DNA of 63,664 nt, the filler included, from Reticulomyxa filosa (lineage: Eukaryota > Protista > Foraminifera), in NCBI GenBank assembly GCA_000512085.1. It is 23 parts of 23 records of this genome, joined end to end, with 100 filler letters (N's around TTAATTAATTAA, not from the genome) between each part and the next. Parts side by side here need not be neighbours in the genome. Positions count along the whole stretch, not along the records: positions 32,762 to 45,467 come from ASPP01026197.1; 22 more parts are not named here. One strand, written 5' to 3'. The translations under genes were made by a program, and so were the position numbers. Under the pieces are notes generated by a model that worked only from the letters and a program-made list of their open reading frames with translations, was not told the origin of the DNA and searched no databases. Of the stretch, positions 2,210 through 45,567 are shown piece after piece; position 1 is the first letter of the stretch; every line of letters starts with the position of its first letter.

Positions 2210-4798
2210 TCAAAATTTTCCACCACGTTGTTTCACAAGAAATTTTTGTTGAGGTGTTAAACCTTTTGTATCTTTCCAAAAACTGTTTTCCATTGACAAA
2301 CCACTTTGGACACCTACTTTCCAAATATAGTCTACTGAATTCCTTTCAGTTACGTCAATAATTTTACCATTATCACTACCCCATAATCGAATTGTTTTAT
2401 CCTCTGAAGATGAAACTAATTTCGAACCATCAGGTGATATGTCAATGCTGCTAATAATTCCATTATGTCCTTTCAATATTTGAATCTGCTTTCCTGAAGA
2501 TACATCCCATATTTGAATAATCTTGTCGTCCGAACACGAAAAAAGTTTCGAACTATCTGGGGATAATAGTATCTTGGATACTCGATCTGAATGTCCGTAT
2601 AATGTTTTGATCTCTTTCCCAGTCAATATGTCCCAAAATATAATTGTATTATCACATGAGCAAGATACGATTTTAGTACCATCTGGAAAAAATTGTACGT
2701 CTACTACACTGTTTTGATGTTCTTCTAACAATAAAATTTGATCTCCAGATGATGCGTTCCATATTCGAATCGTGTTATCATTTGAACATGACACGATTTT
2801 GGTACCATCTGGGGAAAAGTATGCACGATTCACATTTTCTGTATGCCCTTCTAATAATAAAAGTTGGTCTCCAGATGATACATTCCATACTCGAATTGTT
2901 TTATCATCTGAACATGATACAATCTTAGATCCATCCGGTGAAACATTTACTCTATTTATATCATTGGTATGTCCTTTCAATAATTTGACCTTTTTTCCTG
3001 ATGATAAATCCCATATTCGAATTGTTTTATCTTTTGAGCATGATACAAGCTTGGAATCACCTGATAAAAATTGCACATTGTATATCACACTAGAATGTCC
3101 TTTTAATAATCGGATTTGTTTTCCTGATAGAATATCCCATATTCGAATCGTTTTATCATTTGAATATGATATGATTTTGGAACCGTCTAATGAAAATAAC
3201 ACTCCACGCACAAAATTTGAATGACCTTTAAACACTTGAATTTGTCTTCCTGATTGCACATCCCATAATCGAATAGTTCTATCTACAGAACATGACGCAA
3301 TCTTAGAACTATCAGGAGAAAATTTTAAGTTCATGATGACGTCTAACTCTCCTTCTGTTAACTGGATTTTTTTTTCTAAAGCTATATCCCATGTACGAAT
3401 ACAATCAAATGAGCATGACAAAATTTTGTGTTCATTTGAAAAAAATTCCACACCAATTATTGTATTTGAATGCCCTTCTAATTCTTGAATTTGTTTTCCA
3501 GATGATACATCCCATAGTCGGATTGTACAATCCTCCGAACCTGATACAATTTTAGAACCGTCAGATGAAAATCGTGCTGTTTCTACACAGTCGATATGCC
3601 CTTCTAACTCTTGAAGTTGTTTTCCAGACAACAGATCCCATAATCCAAGAGTAGTATCATCTGAATATGACAATATTTTTGAACCATCTGGTGAAAATTG
3701 AATTCCATTTACACTATTAGTATGTTCTTCTAATATTTGAATTTGTTGACCCGATACTACATCCCATATTCGAATAGTTGAATCTTTTGAATATGATATA
3801 ACATTTAATCCATTGGGTGTAAATTGTACCCCAACTACATCATCTGAATGCCCCTCTAATAATTGAAGCTGTGTTCCAGATGATACATCCCATATCCGTA
3901 CGCTTTTATCTTTTGAGCATGACACAATTTTGGAATAATCTGGTGAAAATTGCACTGTATTTACAGAATCTGAATGTCCTTCTAATAACTTGACTTGTTC
4001 TCCGGATGACATATCCCATATCCTAATAGTTTTGTCATTTGAACTTGACACGATCTTAGAACAATCTAATGAAAATTGCGCAGCAGTTACATCTGATGAA
4101 TGTCCTTTTAAAATTTGAATTTGTCGACCTGATAATACATCCCATATTCTAATAGTTGTATCCTTTGAGAATGACACAATTTTAGACCCATCATGTGAAA
4201 ACTGTACTCCGCCTATCGTATCTGAATGTCCTTCCAATACACAAAGTTGGTCACTTGACTCTGTGTCCCATATTCGAATAGTTTCATCGCCTGAATAGGA
4301 TACTACTTTAGTTCTATCTGGTGAAAATTGAATTCCTAATACTCCATCTACATGTCCTTCTAAATTTGCATATTCTCCAAAGTAAATATCGTTCATTGAT
4401 GCATTTGTGAAATGGACTTTGGTTAAACAAGTCCGATAAAAACGCACATGATCTAAATTTGCATTACTAAAATTGGTTCCTTCGAGGAAAGCATGATCCA
4501 AAATTGCATGAGGGATTTTTACATTGCTCCAATTTTGATAATCCATGTCGATATTAGCCGAATTGAGTATTGTAACTGCATTTGCTGCTGCAATACTAAC
4601 ATTTTCATTCTTTTTTGATGATTCAATAATTCGAAATAATCTTGATTTTAAATTTACAAATATTGAATTATTGTCATGAATTCTTTCGGCAATAAACTGG
4701 ATAATCCCCAATTCTTCATTTAATAATTTACGATTAAAAGATAATTTTTGAACCTGTGTTTCAAATTGTTGTTGAAATTGTTGATTATTTATATCAAC
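2210..4798 (-). CDS. C-terminal part of a NACHT-type NLR-like protein: pentapeptide repeats plus 16 WD40 repeats; 5' end lost in the assembly spacer
   Basis: The frame is open to the gap (VDINNQQFQQQFETQVQKLSFNRKLLNEELGIIQFIAER), nearly identical to the post-NACHT region of the 37315 ORF. Contains AAANAVTIL, pentapeptides (AILDH AFLEG TNFSN ANLDH), 16 ~42-aa GH...WD repeats and a C-terminal KGLTPQQKFLVKQRGG cap. Confidence 0.9.
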   Translation of the reverse strand, partial: VDINNQQFQQQFETQVQKLSFNRKLLNEELGIIQFIAERIHDNNSIFVNLKSRLFRIIESSKKNENVSIAAANAVTILNSANIDMDYQNWSNVKIPHAILDHAFLEGTNFSNANLDHVRFYRTCLTKVHFTNASMNDIYFGEYANLEGHVDGVLGIQFSPDRTKVVSYSGDETIRIWDTESSDQLCVLEGHSDTIGGVQFSHDGSKIVSFSKDTTIRIWDVLSGRQIQILKGHSSDVTAAQFSLDCSKIVSSSNDKTIRIWDMSSGEQVKLLEGHSDSVNTVQFSPDYSKIVSCSKDKSVRIWDVSSGTQLQLLEGHSDDVVGVQFTPNGLNVISYSKDSTIRIWDVVSGQQIQILEEHTNSVNGIQFSPDGSKILSYSDDTTLGLWDLLSGKQLQELEGHIDCVETARFSSDGSKIVSGSEDCTIRLWDVSSGKQIQELEGHSNTIIGVEFFSNEHKILSCSFDCIRTWDIALEKKIQLTEGELDVIMNLKFSPDSSKIASCSVDRTIRLWDVQSGRQIQVFKGHSNFVRGVLFSLDGSKIISYSNDKTIRIWDILSGKQIRLLKGHSSVIYNVQFLSGDSKLVSCSKDKTIRIWDLSSGKKVKLLKGHTNDINRVNVSPDGSKIVSCSDDKTIRVWNVSSGDQLLLLEGHTENVNRAYFSPDGTKIVSCSNDNTIRIWNASSGDQILLLEEHQNSVVDVQFFPDGTKIVSCSCDNTIIFWDILTGKEIKTLYGHSDRVSKILLSPDSSKLFSCSDDKIIQIWDVSSGKQIQILKGHNGIISSIDISPDGSKLVSSSEDKTIRLWGSDNGKIIDVTERNSVDYIWKVGVQSGLSMENSFWKDTKGLTPQQKFLVKQRGGKF

Positions 4799-32761: not shown

Positions 32762-32792
<31 letters not shown>

Positions 32793-33194
32793 GGTAGTGG
32801 CAGTAGTAACAGTAGAAGAAGAAGACAACGGAGACGATGGAGATGAAGGAGAAGAAATAACAGTTGCAGCAGTAGAAGAAAGTAGGGCAGTGACAGGGCC
32901 TTTTCCTTTTTTTGAGGTCGCCTGGATTAGATTCGATGCTTCTCTGGGGTTGATATTACAATGCTTGAAAAGATATGTCGCATCACCTCGATTTTCGATG
33001 GGGGCTGCGAAATTATGGCCGGTTTCCAATACCTGCGAACCACACCCCCAAGGCCTTACTCCGACATGGCGGAGTTGGGTCCCTTTCGTTTGGAAGGAAT
33101 CGTATCTGTTGCTTGTGCTTTCGACACGGGGCGTGTGGGGCCGGGCAGGTATTTCCTTTTGGAACGCAGCAAATATCTGCTGTTTCTCGACCAA
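32762..33194 (-). CDS. Hypothetical protein fragment running into a poly-Asn tract and the gap
   Basis: GC-richer ORF ending in S/T/N low complexity. Confidence 0.35.
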
Positions 33195-34045
33195 AGATAG
33201 GAGAATCTATTTTTATGGGTAGAATTGCTTGGAGAAATAGGAAAAAATTTGACACGATTTTTTAATTATCTGAGGAAACCACGAGAAGTACGCTCAAACT
33301 AAAAAAAAAAAGGTCAGTTTTTTGGCTGCCTACGTGGTAGTCAGAGTATCGTGTTGGAATTTAATTACTACTAGGTGATCGGGATGTTGTTTGATGTCAA
33401 ATACTTTTTCAAACATTAAATTAAATAGGTACATGTGAAAGTCAAATTGTTTATTTTTAACAACATCTTACACGAGCTTGTATCTGTTTACACGAAGCAA
33501 GGCAATGAAAGTTGTTGGTATCATGCCTCGATTTGAAGGGATATTATTTTGGCAAAAAAAGGTTTAAATTGATCCACATTAAGACGAGTAGTTTCCAAAA
33601 CAGGACAAAAAAACGACCACTAATAATGTATCTGTTCCAAAAAGAACAAATTGAACCTTCAAATAAGAAAGGATCGTGAAAGATATTGCAAGCAATAGAT
33701 TTTGCCGTCAATTGTTTAGCGATTCGGACATGAATTGAAGCCCATTTAAAAAACTTGGAAATTTAATTTTTAAAAGTTAATATCAAAAAATTAAGTCTTG
33801 GTATCATTCTCAATCTTTGTTTAATGAAAATACCACGCTGGAAACTTAAACCAGGAATTAAATCACTTGATTGTCACAAAACGAATCTAGTGATGTCACA
33901 CAAAAGTGTTAATAGACTAATTGAAAAAAGTATTTTGCAAAGCTAATCAAATTTTTGACCGTTTTTTTTCCAACGAATACCAGGGACTTGTGCTGGTAGT
34001 TTCAACGCTAAAAAAATTCTTAAACAAATTCACTGAGATAAGTAA

Positions 34046-36292
34046 ATGGAAAGCATTGAGCAGAAAGCAAACTTGGACATTCCAAATCCTTTTCAAACTT
34101 TGACTTGTTTGCCAATTTCACCGCGACAAACTCAATGCGTGGCTTACAAAGACGAATTTCTTATTTGTGGGGGCTGTGAGACTAATGAATGTTATTCTTA
34201 TCATACGATTAAAAATCAGTACAAATACATTTGTTCTTATCCAAGTAATGTTAATATATTTGGGCATTGTGTAGTGAAGTATGTAAACAACAATAAAGAT
34301 ACAAATAAAAGTGATATCACTTTGCTATCCTTTGGTGGACAAGATGGAAACAAAATAAAACATACATTAATAATGAACTATGTGAGTGTTTGGAATGATG
34401 AAAATGAAAATATAAAAAAACATTGCAATGAATGGACCCCCTTTATCGATAATAATAATGATAACAAAATTATAATTGGAAGCCATGAAGATGATTATCA
34501 AGGAGCACGTGCAATAATTGGTGGCAGTGATAATCATTTATTATTTATAACATATCCTCCAAAAAATATTAGTATAGCCAATTTAAATACTTTAAAGTAT
34601 ATTATGCACGAAGATTTACCAATTGATTCAGAAACAAGAAATCATTGTTTCATATCAAAGGAAAACAAAAATAAAAATAAAAATAAAAATGAAATGTTGT
34701 TATTTTGTAAAAATACAGGATTGTCAATTAAATATGATGAAGATAATAATACACTTGAATTTCATAAAATACGAGTTTGTGCATCTCTTAAAATGTCTGA
34801 ATCTTATGGATATATATACATAAATGATTTTATATTATTTTTTGGCGGTGATGATCTTAGCATTTCAGATAAAATTCACAAATATTGTATTACAGAAAAT
34901 AAATGGATTCAATATGAACAAACGTTACCAGTTTTATTGGAAAATTGTACGGCCGTATTAGCCGAAAATGCTACATTTATACACATTCTTGGAGTGATCA
35001 ATGGAAGCGAAGAATCAATACATATGAAAATAAATGTCAAAGAATGGATGAAAGAAGGAGGACGACAGCAACAATGGATGATGGAAGATAAAGAAATAGT
35101 AGACCTTGAAGAAATCAATATTGAATTGGAAGAAATGAAACCACATTTAGATATTAGAAAATTGAAAGTTGAGAAAATATTAATTATTTTTTTATTTTTG
35201 TTTGTGTGACATAAAACATTAAAAAAAAAAAAAAGAAAAAGAAAGATGTTGAAACAATAATTGAACACTGGAATCGCTTAGCATTGACTAACAAAGCCGG
35301 ATGGGTTAATGATTTTAACATAATTATTTTACGCTATATTCTGGTATGTTTGTTTTCTTTTTGTATGTTTTACATTTGGTGATAACTCACAACACACATA
35401 ACAGCTAAAATATGTTAAACCATTAAAAGTATTCCAAGGATATTCCGGGAATGTGCGTAGTATAAAATTTTCCCCAGATTGTTCAAAAATTATTTCAGCT
35501 TTGGATGATAAAACAATAAGAATATGGGACATAGAATCAGGGAACGAAATTGAGGAACTACAAGGTCATTCACAATTTGTCAACGATGCAGAATTTTCAC
35601 CAGATGGGACAACAATTGTATCATGTTCACATGATAAAACTATTCGATTATGGGACGCAAAATCATTTGCAGAAATAAAACAATTTACGGGACATACTAG
35701 TGCCGTAAAGAATGTAACGTTTTCATCAGATGGAAAAACCATAATGTCTTATTCATATGATAAAACAATAAGGATATGGGATGTACATTCTGGTCAAGAA
35801 ATTCAAAGATTGAGAGGCCGTGAAGATCATGTAAATGACTTAAAATTTTCATTGGATAACCAACAAGCTATGTCAATATCACCCGGCGGGACCATTGAAA
35901 TTTGGGACATACAATCAGGGAAAAAAATACTTGAATGGAAAGAAGATTGTGATTATGCAATTTTGTCTAAATTTTCTTTTGATGGATGTCGTATCGTTGC
36001 GTATTCAACTTATGGAATGTTTCGAATATTAGATGTAGCAACAGGAACCGAAATAAAACTATTGGAAGGATATTTTGATAGAATACATGACGTACAATTT
36101 TCTTCAGATGGACAAACTGTGGTCTCATGTTCAGTTGACGCACTTCGATTGTGCGACATTCAATCAGGAATTGAAATACAAACGTTGAAAGAGCCTTTCA
36201 GTGGAATGATAATGATTAACATTTCATCAGACGGAAAAATGATTGTAGCAGCTTCTTATGATCAAAAAATTAGATTGTGGGGACTACTATAA
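34046..36292 (+). CDS. Kelch-like propeller, helical motif and 7 WD40 repeats (exons 34046-35167, 35236-35343, 35405-36292)
   Basis: Kelch-like GG motifs (LICGG, LSFGG, IIGGS, LFFGG). Two phase-0 GT-AG introns join KLK|KKKDVETIIEHWNRL...GWVNDFNIIILRYIL|LKYVKPLKVFQG to the WD40 ORF in frame. Confidence 0.85.
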
Positions 36293-37089
36293 ACAGATAG
36301 TGCACATTCAAAAGACAATATTTATTGATTTATCTATTGAATGTTTCAAAGATTAGAAAAATTTGGGACTGCCCTTTAGTTCATCTAATTAATTGAATGA
36401 CAAATGTTTTTTTGCTCCTTCACAAATCATTTTTGTCAAGCAATAGAAAAATTATTCTTCAAAATCAATAAAAAAACTGATAACATCCGAATTGCAAGCA
36501 TTACGGAAAAAAAAGTGAGTCTCCCTTCTAACTATTGTTCTGTCGTTGACATCCAACAGTACAAGTTAAGAGATCTTTATTGCTCATCACTTGTCTTAAT
36601 TACATCGTCATCAACGATTGATTTAGGATTAAGTGTGAGATATTTTGCGTTTTTTCGTTAACTTAAAAAAGTAGTATATAATAAATAATGTGACACACTA
36701 CAAAGAGAGCATCAGTGCATTCGAAGGTATGATTATTAGATGGGAAAATACTGAACAAGGTTAAGCCAATTAAAAAGAACTCAAATAAAAAAAGGGGGAC
36801 GCACATATGCGTTGCATAAAAGAACGTGTATTAAAAAATAGTGAGCATTTGGAAAAAACGTAATCCAGTGCAGTCGATATTAGCGACTTAACATTGTCCA
36901 TAGAAACGCAAGATGCAATAGTTATCAAATTTTTTGGGGGGAAAAAAAGAATGTTCATTATTTTTGTTACTGTTGTGCATATGACTGTCTTGCAATGCAC
37001 AGACCAAAGAAGGGATCTCTATCTTTGCATACAAGGATGAAAAAAAAGTGAGTTCCCTGGACAACAAAAAGGAGAAGCTTTTAGGGGGA

Positions 37090-40000
37090 ATGCAACCAGT
37101 TGTGGAACAAGGAAGATACGAAATGGAGATGAAAATGCTTAAACGAGTAGGTGGCAACTTAGTCAAAGAAGAAGAGTGGGGGAAACATCTCGAAGAAAGT
37201 AATGGGGATGTGTCCATAGTAATTGAAAAAATGGTCTCCACATTAATGCTCCAAAAAGTTATTTTAATTGTCGATATATATAAAAAAAAAAAAAGATTAA
37301 ATACAAATACTTAATTGGCAAATAAAAAAAAAAAAAAGACAAAAAATGAACAAGAAATGGAAACGAGTAAAGAAATGGAACCAAAGTTAGATCAATTAAA
37401 AAAAGATGATGAAAAAGTAGAGATTGGGGAAACTAAGCCTGGAATTAATTTGCAAGGTTATTGCATAAATCAAGATTGTTTGGCAGCAAAGGCAAAACTT
37501 CCGGTATGGGTAAATATTGGATTTGGTGATACTTCATTTTATTCTGACAAAACACGCTATTGCTGTCCAGATTGTAGACAGCCCACTGTTACTTCGGTTG
37601 TGAAAGTGCTGTTTTTCAATTCAGAACATTCCATCACTTCAAGTGATAATTCAATTCCTGTGAAAGATAATTATTATCAATGCTTTTATGTAATTCAACC
37701 GAAATTATTTTATGAATTGAAATCAAACAAAATTAGACAACACACAATAAATTTGGACGATTTAATTACTCGAAGTGAAGATGCAATGACGAGTAATGAG
37801 ATACTCAATTTGGTAGCGGAATTGCAGAAATATTTAATAACGGTTGTAAAACCATCCAAAGTGAAAGATAAAACAAGATTATTAGAAAAAATTCAATATG
37901 ATTATAATGGAGACTATAATCAAGTATTTGATGTTGGGAGATTTACTATTTTGTGTGACAATCCTACCAAACTGCAAACAGCAGTGGCTGTGGTAAAGAA
38001 AGCAGAAAAATTCAATTTAATTGTATCTGAAGATAAAGATTTTTTTGAAAGACAATCAAAGACACATCACAGATTTCATAATATTAAATTATATGTCCCA
38101 AAACATGATGTATATGTAGAGATGCAAGCAACATTAAAACATTTTACAACATTAGAAGGATACACTGTTATTGAGAATCCAAAATTAAGTCATTTATTTT
38201 ATGAACACATTAGGGCATGGAAACCAAATAACCCAAACGAGGAAGATTTGAAACAAGCAAGCGATGAAACATTAACCAAGATTAATGATATCATTTGCGA
38301 GTGGATCGATGGCAAGGCAATACAAAAAATAGCAAACCGTTACAAATCCTCTTCTGAAATTGGAATACTAAAGCCATCACAACTATCCAAAAAAAGTCAT
38401 GAAGAAATCAATAAAGATGCAATGTTGAAAATGTCACAATTTGTATATGAACAACTTTGTAAATTTACTCCAGAGAAAACAAAAGGGAAAGCAATTTATG
38501 TGATTTTATATGAATATTATAAAAAATATGTTGTTGGAAATAAAAATCCAGCAAGTTGTGCTGATTTTGCTTTGATATTACAAGAGGCAAGAATACAAGA
38601 AATGGAAGGAGATGTAACTATTTCACAAGCTCTTGACATGTATGTATCATTACAGGCAAATAGTTATCCGTATGTGGATGATACTGACAATGAAAAAGAT
38701 GATTCATACGATTGTCATCGACATGTTATTGAATTTTTGGGAAAAGAAGGTGGTGAAGAAAAGTATCATGAACAACAAAAAAGAAAAGTAATGGTAATTC
38801 AAGGAAAATCAGGATCAGGAAAAAGTTTGTTTTGTCGATATTTGGAAGAGACATTGTGGAATAATTATAATTCTAATTTAAAACAATCTATTCCTGTTTA
38901 TATTTCATTTGCAAAAATATATAACAAAAATAATGAAAAAGATATTATTTTACAAACATTACAAGGAAAACGCATCAATAAAGAAATTATGGATGTAATT
39001 CGTGAAAAAGCGTCATTTGTATTTATTATGGATGGATTTGATGAAATATTTGATAAATATAATAAAACTGATGATAATAATAAGTATTTTTATGATCATT
39101 TCAATTTGAATCAATGGAATGCAAAAGTAATTGTTACTTGTAGAAGTAAAGTCTTAAATGAAGAAGATATTACGTCTGCTTTAATTGGTATCAATAAAAA
39201 CAATACATCAATGATGTATTTATGGCCGTTTACAAAACAACAAATGCACAGTTACATTGAAAAATTTGTAACCATGACATTTAAAAAAAATAATAATAAT
39301 AGTAATTGGACAGCAAAAAAATATGAAGAAACATTGAATAATTATCCAAATTTACAAAAAATGGTAGAAGAGCCATTTCTTCTTCAGCTTATCTTGACTG
39401 TATTGCCGTTATTAGTAAAACAATATGGCATAGGAAGCAGAATCTCAAAAGCGCAAATATATGATGTATTTAATGATCAATGGATTGATATTCACATACA
39501 ACAATTAATTTCCAAATTAACAGAATTACGAATTCAAATGAACAGCAATAAAACTAAATCAACATTCGAACAATATTGTCTTGATTTAGGATTTGATAGT
39601 TTTATTCATGGAAATCAAGTCGCAATTGAATCAGATTCTCAATACGAAAATAATGAAGATGAAATTTGGTGTAAAGTAGATCCAGAAACGGAAAGCGATT
39701 TTATGAATGAAAAAAAGGAAGCAATAGCAATAAATGAAATTATTAATACTTCCATTGAAAAAACACAAGATGTTTGGAAAAAGTATTTCAATGATGACAA
39801 TCTTGCCAAATATGTATTAAGAAGGGTTGGTGATAACAAATATCAATTTTTGCACAAATCATGTCAAGAATATTATGCCGCACAAAAAATTATATTTGAT
39901 GTCATTCCATGGCAACCTAATGTTATTGATGATATTAATGTCAATAATCACTTGTTTCAACAACAATTTGAAACATGTATCCCAAAATTGTCTATTAATT

Positions 40001-42407
40001 ACAAATTATTAAATGAAGAGTTAGGAATTATTCAATTTATTGCGGAAAGAGTTCATGACACAAATCCAATATATGTAAATTTAAAATCAAGGTTATTTCG
40101 AATTATTGAATCATCTAAGAGTAATGAGAATACTTGTATTGCAGCAGCAAATGCCATAACTATACTTAATACTGCACGTGTTAGTATGAGCTATCAAAAT
40201 TGGGATAACATTAAAATACCATATGCTGTCTTAAATCGATCTTTCCTTGAAGGAACAAGTTTTAAAGGGGCCATTTTAGATCACGTGCATCTTGTACAAG
40301 CATGTCTTAATTACACCAATTTTACAAATGTATCAATAAATCAAGTTCATTTTGGTGAGTATGCATACTTTGAAGGAGATTCAGATTGTATTAATTTTGT
40401 GCAATTTTCACCTGATGGATCCACAATTGTATCAGGCTCAAGTGATAAAATAATTCAACTGTGGAATGTCTCATCGAGAAAACAAACTCGATTATTAAAA
40501 GGACATTCAGATAGTGTTTCTTGTGTACAATTCTCACCTGATGGATCCAAGATTATATCAAGTTCATTAGATAAGACAATTCGACTATGGGATGCTTCAT
40601 CTGGGAAACAAATTCGAGTGTTAGAAGGACATTCAGATGCAATAAATTTCATACATTATTCATTTGATGGATCTAAAATTGTATCAGGCTCTCAAGATAA
40701 AACCATCCGATTATGGGATGCATCATCCGGAAAACAGCTTCAAATACTGGAAGGGCATTTGGATCATATTTATTCTGTTCAATTTTCTTCTGATGGATCG
40801 ACAATTGTGTCTGGTTCAAATGATAAGACTATTCGGCTATGGAGTACATCTTCTGGTAAACAAATCCAATTATTGGAAGGACATTCGCATGGTGTTCTTT
40901 CTGTACATTTTTCACCTGATGGATCTAAACTTGTATCAGGTGCATTTGATAAAACCATTCGAATATGGGAGGTTTCATCTGGAAAGCAACTTTTATCTTT
41001 CGAAATTCACACAAATCGTATTTCTTCTGTACAATTTTCCCTGATGGATCCAAAATTGTATCAGGCTCAGACGATATGATTATTCGTTTATGGGATATTT
41101 CATCTCGTAAAGAACTTCATTTGTGGAAAGGCCATACAAATACAATTGCTGCTGTACAATTTTCACCAGATGGGTCAAAAGTTGTGTCAAGTGCATTCGA
41201 AAAAACGATCCGATTATGGGATGTATCGCCCCAAAAACAAATTCAAACATTGGATGGACATTCCGGTCATGTTTATTCTGTTCAATTTTCATTTGATGGG
41301 TCTAAAGTTATATCAAGTTCAGATGATAAAACAATTCAATTAAGAGATGCGTCATCTGGAAAAAGAATTCAAACATTGGAAGGACATTCCAATGTTGTTA
41401 TGTCTGCCCAATTTTCACCTGATGGTTTCAGAGTTGTGTCAGGTTCATCGGATAACACCATTCGATTATGGGACGCATTATCTGGAAAACAACTTCAATT
41501 ATTAGGGGGACATTCGGATGCAGTTAATTCTGTTCATTTTTCATCTGATGGATTAAAAATTGTTTCAGGTTCTCAAGATAAAACTATCCGATTATGGGAT
41601 GCAGCATCTGGGAAACAACTTCAAATATTGAAAGGACATTCAAGTAGTATTTATTCTGTTCAATTTTCTCCTGATGAATTCACAATTGTATCTGGTTCTG
41701 ATGATAATACTATCCGATTGTGGGATGTATCAACTGGAAAACAGCTTCAGATATTTAAAGGACACTTAGGCAGTATTTGCTCTGTCCAATTTTCTCCTGA
41801 TGGATCAAAAATTGTATCAGGTGGACATGATAAGACAATTCGATTATGGAACGTATCATCTAGAAAAAAACCTCGATCATTGAAAGGGCATTCATCTACG
41901 GTTTCTTGTGTGCAATTTTCGCCTGACGGATCAAAAATTGTGTCCGGTTCGTGGGATATGACCATTAGATTATGGGACGCATCTTCTGGAAAACAGCTTC
42001 AAGTATTGAAAGGACATTCATGTACTGTCAGCTTTGTCCGATTTTCACCAGACGGATCCAGAATTGTGTCATGTTCAACTGATAAAACCATTCGATTATG
42101 GGGTATGTCACCTGGAGGAAGGTGTGCTGATAATGTTATTCCTGAGCAAATACCATCTAATGATTCCAAAATTGTATCAAATTCAGGTAATAAAAGTTCT
42201 CGATTATGGAATTTGTTTTCACGACACAATGTAGAACAGTCAAATTCTTCAAAGAATGTCAATGCTAATGAAAAACATTGGAAGTGTCTTTGGCAGGGTG
42301 GTGTTCAAAGTCGCGGTTTGTCATTAGAAGGAAGTACCTGGAAGGGTGCGAAAGGCTTAACTTCGGTGCAGATGTTACTTGTAGGACAACGTGGTGGTAT
42401 CTTTTGA
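37090..42407 (+). CDS. NLR-like STAND protein: UBA/CUE-like segment, Cys4 module, RelA/SpoT-like nucleotidyltransferase, NACHT NTPase, pentapeptide repeats, ~14 WD40; one apparent 1-nt frameshift at ~41039
   Basis: Phase-0 intron 37258-37338. Walker A GKSGSGKS (~38803), Walker B FVFIMDGFDEI, sensor VIVTCRS and EPFLL. Synthetase-like motifs KVKDKTRLLEK, DVGRFTI and VEMQAT. The WD40 array continues in a shifted frame (ORF 40965-42407). Confidence 0.85.
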
Positions 42408-42697
42408 TGATCATTTTATTTATTCTTTTTTTGTTAAAAAGCAAGAGTTGGACTTTTTTTATCTCTGAGCAGTTTTGTTATTTTATTAAGCATCATTTAG
42501 ATTTTTAGCATATTGAATATGAATGTTTCAAAAAAATATCAATCTCATCTTTAAACTATCTAAGAAACGAACGCAATATCAACAAAGTATACAAATCAGC
42601 GCAAATGTTTCGAACGAATAGATAGTTAACATAAAAAATTTTTATATGCAAATATTTACATGAGAACCTCAGTTAAAAAAAAAAGAAATGATTGTAG

Positions 42698-43970
42698 CTA
42701 GTTCCATATTTGAATAGCATGATCATTAGAACATGTGACAATTGTATTGCCATCAGGAGAAACATCCATTCCAATGATAGAACTGGAATAACCTTCTAAT
42801 GTTTGCATTTCTGTTCCTGATATTATATCATATGAACGAATTCTCTCATCGTTAGAGGAAGTAATAATAGTTTGACAATCAGGAAGGAATTTAATATCAA
42901 AAATAGAATGTGAAATAGTTTGTAATGAATGTAATTGTTTTCCTGTTTCAATGTCCCATAATCGTATTGTATTGTCATAAGAGCAGGATAAGATACATTT
43001 ATTATCTGGGGAAAAAATAGCACGCATAATAGCATCAGAATGTCCAGTAAATTGTTTTAAAATATTACCAGATTGAATGTCCCATAAGATAATAGTATTA
43101 TCATTAGATGAAGATAAAATGTTTTGACCATTAGATGAAAATTGTACACTTCTCACAATATCAGAATGTCCTTTTAATTGTTGAAATTGTTTACCAGAAT
43201 TAATATTAAATATTCTAATTGTTTTATCATTAGAACATGTGACAATAAGAATACCATCTGGAGAAAAATCTATATCCCATACAGGATCTAAATCTCCATC
43301 TTCTATTTTTATTAATTTTTTTTCTGTTTTTATATCCCATAATCTAATTGTTTTATCCAATGAAGAAGATACTATCATATCACAATACGGTGAAAATTTT
43401 GCTAGTAATACATAATCTAAATGTCCTCTAAATGTTTTTATTTGTTTTCCTGACATTACATCCCATAATCTTACTGTTTTATCATTTGAAGATGAAACAA
43501 TTTTATTGCCATCTGGTGAAAATTTTACACTTCTAATTGAACTTGTGTGTCCTCGTAAAACTTTTATTAATTTGAAATATTTTGTCTAGATATTTATATA
43601 TATTTATATACATACATATATTATATATTATGTATGCATATATAATTGTTTCATATACTTAACATATTTTGTCACAATTCTATCAAAATCATTAATCCAT
43701 CCTACTTTGATATCCAAAATTCGCAACCAATTTTTAATTATCAATTTTATCAATTGTTTAGACTAGTTTTTTAATAAAAATATCTTAACGAATAATTAAT
43801 ATCTTTTTTTTCCAAAGACAAGGACTTACCAACTGTGGTGTTGTAATCTCTTCTTCGTTACTAGTAATAGAGGTAATAGGAAGAACACCAACAGGAGGGG
43901 CAGCAACAGGAGCTGGAGCGGCAGCAGAAGCGGTAGTAATAAGAGCAGAAGCAGTATTAGGGGTAGTCAT
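42698..43970 (-). CDS. 7xWD40 protein with an N-terminal Ala/Pro-rich exon and the helical HW/GWIxDF motif; 3 exons
   Basis: Exon 1 MTTPNTAS...TTPQL|GTAAG; exon 2 SKQLIKLIIKNWLRILDIKVGWINDFDRIVTKY; exon 3 TKYFKLIKVLRGHTSS followed by seven WD repeats. Confidence 0.85.
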
Positions 43971-44417
43971 TTCTTCCACTGCTCTTTTTTTGCGACAAGC
44001 AAAAGAAGATCAATCACAAACTTCTAAAGGATAAATTTCTTGAGCTTTCTAGGTCTCCACGACGGAAAAAAGCTACAACTTCAGTTTTTCACTCTTTTAT
44101 CTATTTTATTTTTATTTCGACTTTATGTAAGATTTCAAGTGAAACAAGCAAAGTTATAACTTGTCCACAATTTCGTTTCAGATGTATTTTTAACGACCAG
44201 AAAAAATTGTATCACCAAAATTTCATACACTTATACTTACAAATATAATGTACAAAAGCTTTAAAAAAAAAAAGTAGTATTGAAGAGAATTACGAAAAGC
44301 AAATTTTTTTGAACGAGTTAAAGTAAACTCTGCCATCTACAAAAAAAAAAAAGCGAAGAAAAAGAGGATGAAAGCATGCAATAAAAACAAAAGCAAAAAA
44401 AAAAAAAAAGAAAAACA

Positions 44418-45391
44418 CTATTCCCCAACAAGAAAATAAGCGATGACCGATGAGACATTAGTTTGCGAGCAGTCAAGGACTTGATCAAGGACATCAACAA
44501 ACTGAGCAAGGATAAGCTTTCCGCTTGGACTTTTAAGCCAATGATGTCGTGCATTAAAAATGAGTTTACAAATAAATTCATAGAGAAAGATTAAATCGTT
44601 ATCCCAATGCAAATTGAACTGAGTATGCCTAGCGACATATTGAGAACAGAGTGATTGAAAAGCTTTAGTAACGGCAAACTTACAAGTGGAGTCCTCTTTC
44701 AAAATTGGCAAAAGTTCATCAAAGAACGTGAAATGAAAGTCAAGAAATGCCCCACATTCTGAGACACACCAATAAATAAAGTTAAGATCAAGTTGGTCCA
44801 CTGACATTAGCGTGTCTTTTTCTGTTGCATTCGAACCGATTTGCTGCTGCTGTGCAAATATTTGGAGTTTGTTCATATGCATTGTTGCTTGTACGTTAAA
44901 TTTGTTTTCGTCTCTGCTCCTGTCATTCGATAAATGGGCAACATTCCAAACTTTTCTCTCCAAAATCGAATCGATTCTTTCTGCTGCGAGTTCTTCGATC
45001 TCATCCATTGCAAAGCCTTGGCGTCGATATTTCAAGACAAGCGACAACACCGGAATTCTGTAAGCGGGGGATAACATACGTACACGGTCGGAAAAGGATT
45101 GGAAAGGGTCTTCCGCAAACAAGTTGTCGCTGCAAGACATATTTAAACCTGTTTTCTCAATTAGATACTCCATTATTGTGAGCTTGTCTTTCAATGTTTC
45201 GTCACTTCTGCAATGCCACAATTTGTCAAAACATTTTCCCAAACTTTTTGACCAAAAGTTCCGTGGAAATTTTTCAGCGTTTCTTTCAACAATGCCAAGT
45301 TTCTTGTTTCACAACTTGACAACAACTTGTTTTCTGCGTCGACAAAGATTTCTTTCTCTTTTTTGCCACGATTTTTACTCTTTCTTGGCAT
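44418..45391 (-). CDS. Hypothetical helical protein; apparent frameshift near 45245
   Basis: The MPRKSKNRGK ORF overlaps and continues into the 274-aa ORF in another frame close to short homopolymers. Confidence 0.45.
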
Positions 45392-45567
45392 ATGTCTGTT
45401 GTCAGGCAGTTAAGCAAAATATTGATAATATATTTATCAAAAAAAAAAAAAAAAAAGGAATTTCAGGNNNNNNNNNNNNNNNNNNNNNNNNNNNNNNNNN
45501 NNNNNNNNNNNTTAATTAATTAANNNNNNNNNNNNNNNNNNNNNNNNNNNNNNNNNNNNNNNNNNNN

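Follow-up and report, generated by a model that had tools for sequence, protein, structure and literature searches.

Does the foraminiferan Reticulomyxa filosa wire an alarmone synthetase into an immune-type receptor, and what would such an enzyme make? The question arose from a 63,664-nucleotide stretch of its genome (GCA_000512085.1), the window analysed here, which consists of short contigs joined by Ns. A 12.7-kb contig at positions 32762-45467 carries a long frame whose product, P0001, had been proposed in a sequence-only reading to place a RelA/SpoT-like effector domain upstream of NACHT and WD40 domains. To our knowledge, alarmone synthesis in eukaryotes is established just for plastids. 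The proposed fusion was borne out: a NACHT match, Walker motifs and WD40 repeats follow the effector (Table 1), and the parts run in the order upstream exon, four-cysteine (Cys4) domain (aa 27-128), synthetase (131-318), helical domain, NACHT (478-637), pentapeptide stretch and WD40 repeats. P0001 has the layout of NOD-like receptors (NLRs) within the STAND class (signal transduction ATPases that have numerous domains), namely an N-terminal effector, a NACHT domain bearing both Walker A and Walker B, and C-terminal repeats. The family of P0001 is described below by its layout, fold, conserved motif residues, size and kinship to bacterial toxin synthetases. By analogy with characterised systems, we put at roughly 50% the probability that these proteins serve as immune receptors of the NLR type, with an effector that adds pyrophosphate to free purine nucleotides and so drains ATP.

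The synthetase domain was identified from sequence profiles and from a predicted structure. Against Pfam RelA_SpoT (PF04607), P0001 reached E 1.8e-4 and 22.2 bits, missing the 27-bit cut-off, under which bacterial Apk-like matches mostly fall too; the paralogue P0002, with two copies of the domain, cleared it at 30.2 bits. Tas1 was the best Protein Data Bank sequence match of P0001 as a single protein (E 0.16), and was found at E 5e-10 with a profile whose underlying alignment includes distant bacterial rows. When an AlphaFold model of aa 24-442 (predicted local distance difference test score, pLDDT, 92; predicted template-modelling score 0.84) was used in Foldseek, all 24 matches listed were RelA/SpoT homologue (RSH) synthetases, with Tas1/Apk1 (6OX6) first at E 1e-7. 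In VIA-align, the model gave Z 13.9 with B. subtilis RelP, 13.3 with RelQ, 12.3 with Tas1 and 12.2 with CapRel, with Rel also within 12-14. Other nucleotidyltransferases did not exceed 8.7, versus 12-14 for RSH proteins over ~160-170 residues. The Foldseek and VIA-align scores make the assignment to the RSH fold secure, and the structural match on which the sequence-only reading had staked its claim beforehand was found. On the strength of the model, aa 131-318 are confirmed as a RelA/SpoT synthetase domain.

We compared the active site with that of Apk1/Tas1, whose D327, R330, Y366, N370, E382 and Q384 align to D192, R195, H238, N242, E255 and Q257 of P0001 (Tas1 chain and full-length numbering are offset by 21). 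The Asp of the Apk1 DLAR motif (D327) is presumably catalytic. R330, N370 and E382 of Apk1, together with the following Gln, are named as ATP-binding (PMC12691689; statements on published work, here and below, refer to the accessible parts of the papers cited). The order of synthetase motifs had been read correctly from the sequence, but the first motif had not: it is K-x3-R-x3-K as in Tas1, not RxK-x3-S-x3-K. This motif followed by DYxGD is common to P0001, Tas1 and the bacterial matches, whereas long RSH rows have GRPKHLYGIxxK. Among aligned paralogue rows, K170 (59/59), R174 (56/57), K178 (57/57), D192 (59/59), R195 (59/59), R239 (61/61), E255 (62/63) and Q257 (63/63) were conserved, in agreement with the earlier expectation for the catalytic Asp and Glu. 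All 13 motif residues were kept in 48 of the 54 rows with full site coverage (68 rows aligned), and every motif site was at least 95% conserved, a level that just 15 of 107 polar columns outside the synthetase domain match. Judged from these alignments, the active site is intact and strongly conserved.

The acceptor side departs from this pattern at one place. The loop THHRFHN had been called a divergent GY loop; it does diverge, but less than supposed, because the Tas1 alignment places H238 on Y366 and N242 on N370, the ATP-binding Asn of Apk1, leaving a single Tyr-to-His change at the acceptor-stacking position. Of 61 aligned rows, 54 have His and 7 Tyr there, while the loop of bacterial relatives reads G/H-Y-R-D-x-x; P0001 thus lacks the G-loop Tyr by which RSH domains are recognised. 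FaRel Y175A retained toxicity and ppApp synthesis (PMC7229694), so that His at this position need not abolish catalysis. The missing Tyr, the Pfam score under the cut-off and the partly degenerate first copy in P0002 would fit a pseudo-enzyme or integrated decoy, a domain that would just bind nucleotides or alarmones, or serve as bait for bacterial effectors, while the NLR signals otherwise. Decoys usually lose catalytic residues, however, whereas the aligned catalytic residues here are all near-invariant and the domain is the best-conserved part of the protein, and we consider this explanation very unlikely.

The extent of the family was examined in protein database entries, from which all copy counts are drawn. 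From 1508 candidates, a query of aa 120-430 retrieved 68 proteins, every one named R. filosa and one being the P0001 gene itself, so the paralogues that the sequence-only reading had suggested counting number at least 67. The synthetase core is spanned by 58 of these 67 relatives; 57 of the 58 have NACHT, and 38 have WD40 repeats as well. Median identity to P0001 was 85% for the synthetase core, 65% for NACHT, 60% for the helical domain and 53% for WD40; the first figure is possibly somewhat inflated by the presence of the synthetase in the query, yet the helical domain lay in the same query. In 36 of the 38 paralogues with all three domains, conservation of the core exceeded that of NACHT. 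By these identities, the synthetase is the most conserved part of the protein. Two members have other layouts. P0002 (RFI_08856) has two tandem Cys4-synthetase units ahead of NACHT, and in the first synthetase DYxGD and some of the G-loop are missing while D, R, E and Q remain. P0064 (ETO26992.1) has no NACHT; it consists of a signal sequence, a repeat ectodomain, one transmembrane helix, a coiled coil and, at the cytoplasmic end (aa ~590-970), the Cys4 and synthetase unit.

Where the domain came from was addressed with relatives outside R. filosa. Three environmental proteins, P0082, P0087 and P0074 (47-64% identity), retain the His loop; Cys4 is present in P0082 and P0074 too. Among 1.84 billion representatives searched, 59 matched, of which P0106 and P0116 were rejected as false positives. 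Of 12 proteins inspected among the weakest matches, all unrelated to the group with the His loop, 10 were Apk-like synthetases, some fused to MuF, extracellular contractile injection system (eCIS)-core, DUF4781 or TPR, and none of the 12 had NACHT. The relatives of distant bacterial or phage matches include a VgrG fusion, and Apk1 homologues have been reported in just such MuF, eCIS and VgrG-type fusions (PMC12691689). Tandem arrays of at least two Apk-like domains also occur in the bacterial or phage proteins P0135, P0109 and P0111. In trees built without Tas1, RelP/RelQ, CapRel, fungal sequences or any canonical small synthetase of known function, the His group formed one clade (support 100/99) and joined P0115 among the Apk-like rows. 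The node uniting it with P0115 had support of 97/86 in the first tree and 87/77 in the second, from which 28 rows were dropped; branches were long, and a sister position was not rejected by the approximately unbiased test (p 0.19; two such tests concern one split and count as a single result). These comparisons refine the assignment: the domain appears to group with Apk1/Tas1-like exported toxin synthetases, not with CapRel or stringent-response enzymes, and its nearest relatives outside the His group seem to be bacterial and phage toxins.

This grouping makes pyrophosphorylation of tRNA less likely. A translation block of the CapRel/FaRel2 kind, in which the 3'-CCA of tRNA or another RNA end is modified, would suit the length of the CapRel match (196 residues), the altered acceptor-stacking residue and the extra conserved Cys4 domain, which could bind RNA. 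Identity is 8% to CapRel versus 20% to Tas1 (172 residues, root-mean-square deviation 3.6), however, and the K-x3-R-x3-K and DYxGD motifs are those of Tas1, not the RxK-x3-S-x3-K-x2-R of FaRel2, and we regard an RNA target as improbable.

A published list gives independent support for the kinship to Tas1. This Tas1-seeded three-round jackhmmer list (PMC10083569 Dataset S1) contains at least 118 rows from R. filosa, to which each of the 24 NACHT-named rows listed belongs; the rows listed include none for four fungal genera or Dictyostelium. The main text of that paper never names Reticulomyxa, and the supplements to PMC7229694 and PMC12691689 contain no Reticulomyxa entry. Dataset S1 also lists three proteins of Symbiodinium microadriaticum, two of them named ankyrin-repeat, whose scores with the Tas1 profile are E 1e-20 to 1e-22; other protists may thus have acquired Apk-like domains. 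Since the distant matches checked outside Reticulomyxa have no NACHT and the four fungal genera are absent from the listed Tas1 rows, the R. filosa proteins probably originated separately from the RelA_SpoT NLRs of fungi, a reading taken from search lists. In 401 genomes of one bacterial phylum, a mixed profile matched in 77, nearly all matches being long Rel proteins, and none of the examined loci held a synthetase-NACHT-WD40 gene. One of them (L042:2343-8084, +) encodes another STAND-RSH fusion, a 1913-aa bacterial protein of caspase, STAND ATPase, TPR and RelA/SpoT parts with TGS, AH/RIS and ACT domains, built from a long RSH. A metagenome scan of 49 stretches gave one locus, rejected as the antisense strand of a phage gene; tblastn against phage sequences gave no match, and a plasmid match at E 0.2 was rejected as not RSH. 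A tentative history, to which we give somewhat less than an even chance, is that of a domesticated bacterial interspecies toxin: an Apk1-type pyrophosphokinase would have been acquired by Reticulomyxa and related uncultured organisms, changed its acceptor Tyr to His, gained Cys4 and been wired to more than 50 NACHT-WD40 sensors and at least one transmembrane receptor, non-self then yielding (p)ppApp or a new 3'-pyrophosphorylated nucleotide.

The remaining parts of P0001 bear on how the synthetase might be controlled. The four Cys of the Cys4 domain were invariant in 56 of 56 aligned rows, and the domain accompanies the synthetase in 56 of 58 synthetase-bearing paralogues. It had no Foldseek match at E ≤0.001, and its best Z (6.1) was at background level, which does not by itself demonstrate a new fold. 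The N-terminal part of P0001 drew no meaningful match from NCBIfam or PADLOC. The WD40 repeats, among which the frameshifted repeat 6 (see below) is counted, have a mean pairwise identity of 56%, and their variability is clustered, with 7-9 different residues at each of positions 9, 10, 12 and 28 in our register. Intact Walker motifs, lineage expansion and variable repeat positions are traits that suggest an NLR. If other STAND/NLR proteins are a guide, a non-self ligand would bind the variable WD40 propellers, NACHT would exchange ADP for ATP and oligomerise, and the synthetase would be released or clustered. As in Apk1, Apk2 and the EAS enzymes, it could then transfer pyrophosphate from ATP to the 3'-OH of ADP or ATP, and possibly of GDP or GTP, so that (p)ppApp is formed while ATP is drained. 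In this way the giant multinucleate cell might shut down or sacrifice whichever part of it is infected, or poison an intracellular bacterium.

Several observations weigh against this account. A profile made from Reticulomyxa rows only reaches Tas1 at just E 0.41, and RelP, Rel and RelQ (Z 13.9-12.5) equal or exceed Tas1 in VIA-align, so that the fold alone cannot single out Tas1. Kinship does not fix the product, because the clade spans ppApp, ppGpp and mixed enzymes: VpEAS and AaEAS make (p)ppGpp alone and SaEAS makes both products (PMC12691689). The acceptor may also differ, since most of the family, like the environmental relatives, has the Tyr-to-His change fixed. The P0001 copy itself is frameshifted in WD40 repeat 6. 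Finally, the layout of P0064 suits signalling as much as killing. A receptor-enzyme of that layout would be at home in second-messenger signalling, in which an active enzyme of low turnover makes ppApp or ppGpp as a cue for defence or developmental effectors, in the manner of TIR domains or cyclases; replacement of the G-loop Tyr reduces activity in FaRel and FaRel2, and it would be risky to maintain over 50 copies at full toxicity when no antidote is known. The nearest relatives are toxins, however, and we know of no alarmone receptor in Rhizaria; signalling therefore seems to us a plausible but rather unlikely function, and ATP drainage by an NLR effector is the reading that we retain.

The gene model of P0001 required correction. 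The sequence-only reading had assigned the gene to the frame beginning at 37315; the peptides it quoted lie inside this frame (37315-41079, 1254 codons, ATG at 37357), which is not the whole gene, as there is an upstream exon and a frameshift near 41040. P0001 matches the R. filosa entry P0003 exactly across the first 967 aa, and an intron with GT…AG borders lies between the upstream exon and the main frame at 37258-37338. The upstream exon, without match in Pfam and NCBIfam searches, encodes a short helical motif (…EMKxLxRLxG…LEExNGNVxxVIExL) common to the N-termini of many paralogues, which may be UBA/CUE-like. The NCBI model omits ~90 nt of the pentapeptide stretch, in frame, and spans the frameshift site by a 47-nt intron. 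After the frameshift, the WD40 frame resumes in the open reading frame (ORF) 40953-42407. The 1-nt deletion in repeat 6 is either a real lesion or an assembly error, and short, low-depth pieces of two DNA runs did not settle it. Whatever the family does, this copy could be a damaged allele, truncated beyond its fifth WD40 repeat, which is a serious possibility if not quite an even bet: the annotated intron would delete a third of a blade, and partial or truncated entries are common among the paralogues. Against this, the frame beyond the break is open through eight further intact repeats, the C-terminal motif after it is also present in another WD40 gene of the window, and the break adjoins a T/C run, a plausible place for such an error.

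Apart from P0001, the ORFs of the 12.7-kb contig comprise one Kelch gene, a pair of WD40 genes and a further ORF that has no Pfam match, and the contig holds no adjacent immunity, hydrolase or antitoxin gene. Elsewhere in the window, a second gene of the P0001 type, interrupted by the contig end, is represented at 2210-4798 (-) by its C-terminal part, with the post-NACHT region, a pentapeptide stretch and 16 WD40 matches (72% identity over 101 aa); a caspase-domain ORF is on the same contig at 41-1036.

Table 1. Features of the P0001 gene and its neighbours (positions in the window; AF2, AlphaFold model).
Feature	Position	Strand	Basis or remark
Upstream exon of NCBI gene model	37003-37257	+	P0003 aa 6-90 map there
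Main open frame P0001	37357-41079	+	1240 aa from ATG 37357
Cys4 beta-sandwich domain (C36, C41, C70, C73), predicted zinc-binding	37435-37740	+	alignment; AF2 pLDDT 93
RelA/SpoT-type synthetase domain, Apk1/Tas1-like	37747-38310	+	aa 131-318 of P0001; Pfam, profile, model, Foldseek, VIA-align
Donor-site motif K170-x3-R174-x3-K178, then DYNGD, catalytic D192, R195	37864-37941	+	aligns to Tas1 KSRERAMQKINNDYKGD…DLAR
G-loop H237-H238-R239-F-H-N242 and E255-x-Q257	38065-38127	+	alignment of paralogues and Tas1
H279-x2-Y282-x3-R286 motif	38191-38214	+	also in Tas1 (GHKYYEDWR)
Helical domain, synthetase-NACHT spacer	38311-38751	+	AF2 helices; median 60% identity among paralogues
NACHT NTPase	38788-39267	+	PF05729 E 3.4e-10
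Walker A GKSGSGKS; Walker B VFIMDGFDE	38803-38826; 39019-39045	+	retained by nearly all paralogues
Short pentapeptide-repeat stretch	40225-40356	+	PF00805/PF13599 E ~1e-3
14 WD40 repeats, 42 aa each	40360-42122	+	would suffice for two 7-bladed propellers
1-nt deletion, WD40 repeat 6	41032-41047	+	repeat DNA aligned in register with other repeats
Kelch-repeat gene and two stand-alone WD40 genes flanking the NLR	34046-35209; 35402-36292; 42698-43585	+; +; -	Pfam scan

The synthetase domain is compact (~190 aa) with clear catalytic residues, and one protist has dozens of strongly constrained copies, where the RelA_SpoT NLRs of fungi are a small class. If the enzyme is active, ATP drain or alarmone signalling would join the outputs of eukaryotic NLRs, in what would probably be a second, independent recruitment of RSH enzymes to these receptors, and its product could be what Mesh1 and other eukaryotic alarmone hydrolases naturally act on. 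Should the history as a domesticated toxin be right, the family would represent a cell-death or messenger chemistry undescribed for any eukaryotic cytoplasm in the literature searched.

Among known systems, the closest enzymes are Tas1/Apk1 (6OX6), Apk2, SaEAS, VpEAS and AaEAS (PMC10083569, PMC12691689), which share with the R. filosa domain the fold, K-x3-R-x3-K, DYxGD, D-x2-R, the R after the G-loop aromatic, the N, ExQ and H-x2-Y-x3-R. It differs from them in having mostly His in place of the G-loop Tyr, at 17-20% identity, and in carrying the extra Cys4 domain with no adjacent immunity gene. It is also predicted to be cytoplasmic and fused to NACHT-WD40, whereas Tas1/Apk1, the MuF-fused Apk2 and the EAS enzymes have PAAR, MuF, eCIS or a signal peptide. 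The toxic small alarmone synthetases (toxSAS) CapRel, FaRel2 and FaRel (PMC11782079, PMC7229694) have the same fold, and CapRel is likewise a sensor-gated toxic synthetase in one chain. The R. filosa protein has no pZFD match, however, gating would come from NACHT-WD40, and its donor motif is without the Arg and Ser of FaRel2, whose donor residues are R64, K66, S70, K74 and R77 (PMC11782079).

The receptor logic has parallels as well. Kibby et al. (10.1101/2022.07.19.500537) name alarmone synthetases among the effector classes of NACHT proteins in bacteria, and these proteins and the Podospora HET-E/NWD receptors share with P0001 the effector-NACHT-repeat logic and variable WD40 positions; the R. 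filosa proteins differ in their rhizarian host and in repeats just 56% alike, versus the near-identical repeats of the HET-E type. Scattered eukaryotic synthetases have been noted earlier (PMC3153485). The sequence-only reading had known of no characterised rhizarian example, and likewise the literature searched holds none and no description of the R. filosa family, although the supplements to the Kibby preprint may list R. filosa NACHT proteins. The fungal precedent that it cited exists: RelA_SpoT-NACHT-WD40 genes are known in fungi including Gaeumannomyces, at <1% of N-terminal annotations (Dyrka et al. 2014, PMC4986451), the class accounts for 17 of 3324 cases in Sordariales (PMC12258605), and a 2023 review describes fungal RelA_SpoT NLRs as minor and poorly documented (PMC10197012). 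Both groups have the synthetase-NACHT-WD40 order in a eukaryote and a putative function, but what is a minor class in fungi has at least 57 copies in the single genome of R. filosa. The layout was thus already known from fungi; what is new is the lineage, its probable origin from Apk1-like synthetases, the family's expansion, the Cys4 domain, the changed acceptor site and the version built as a membrane receptor.

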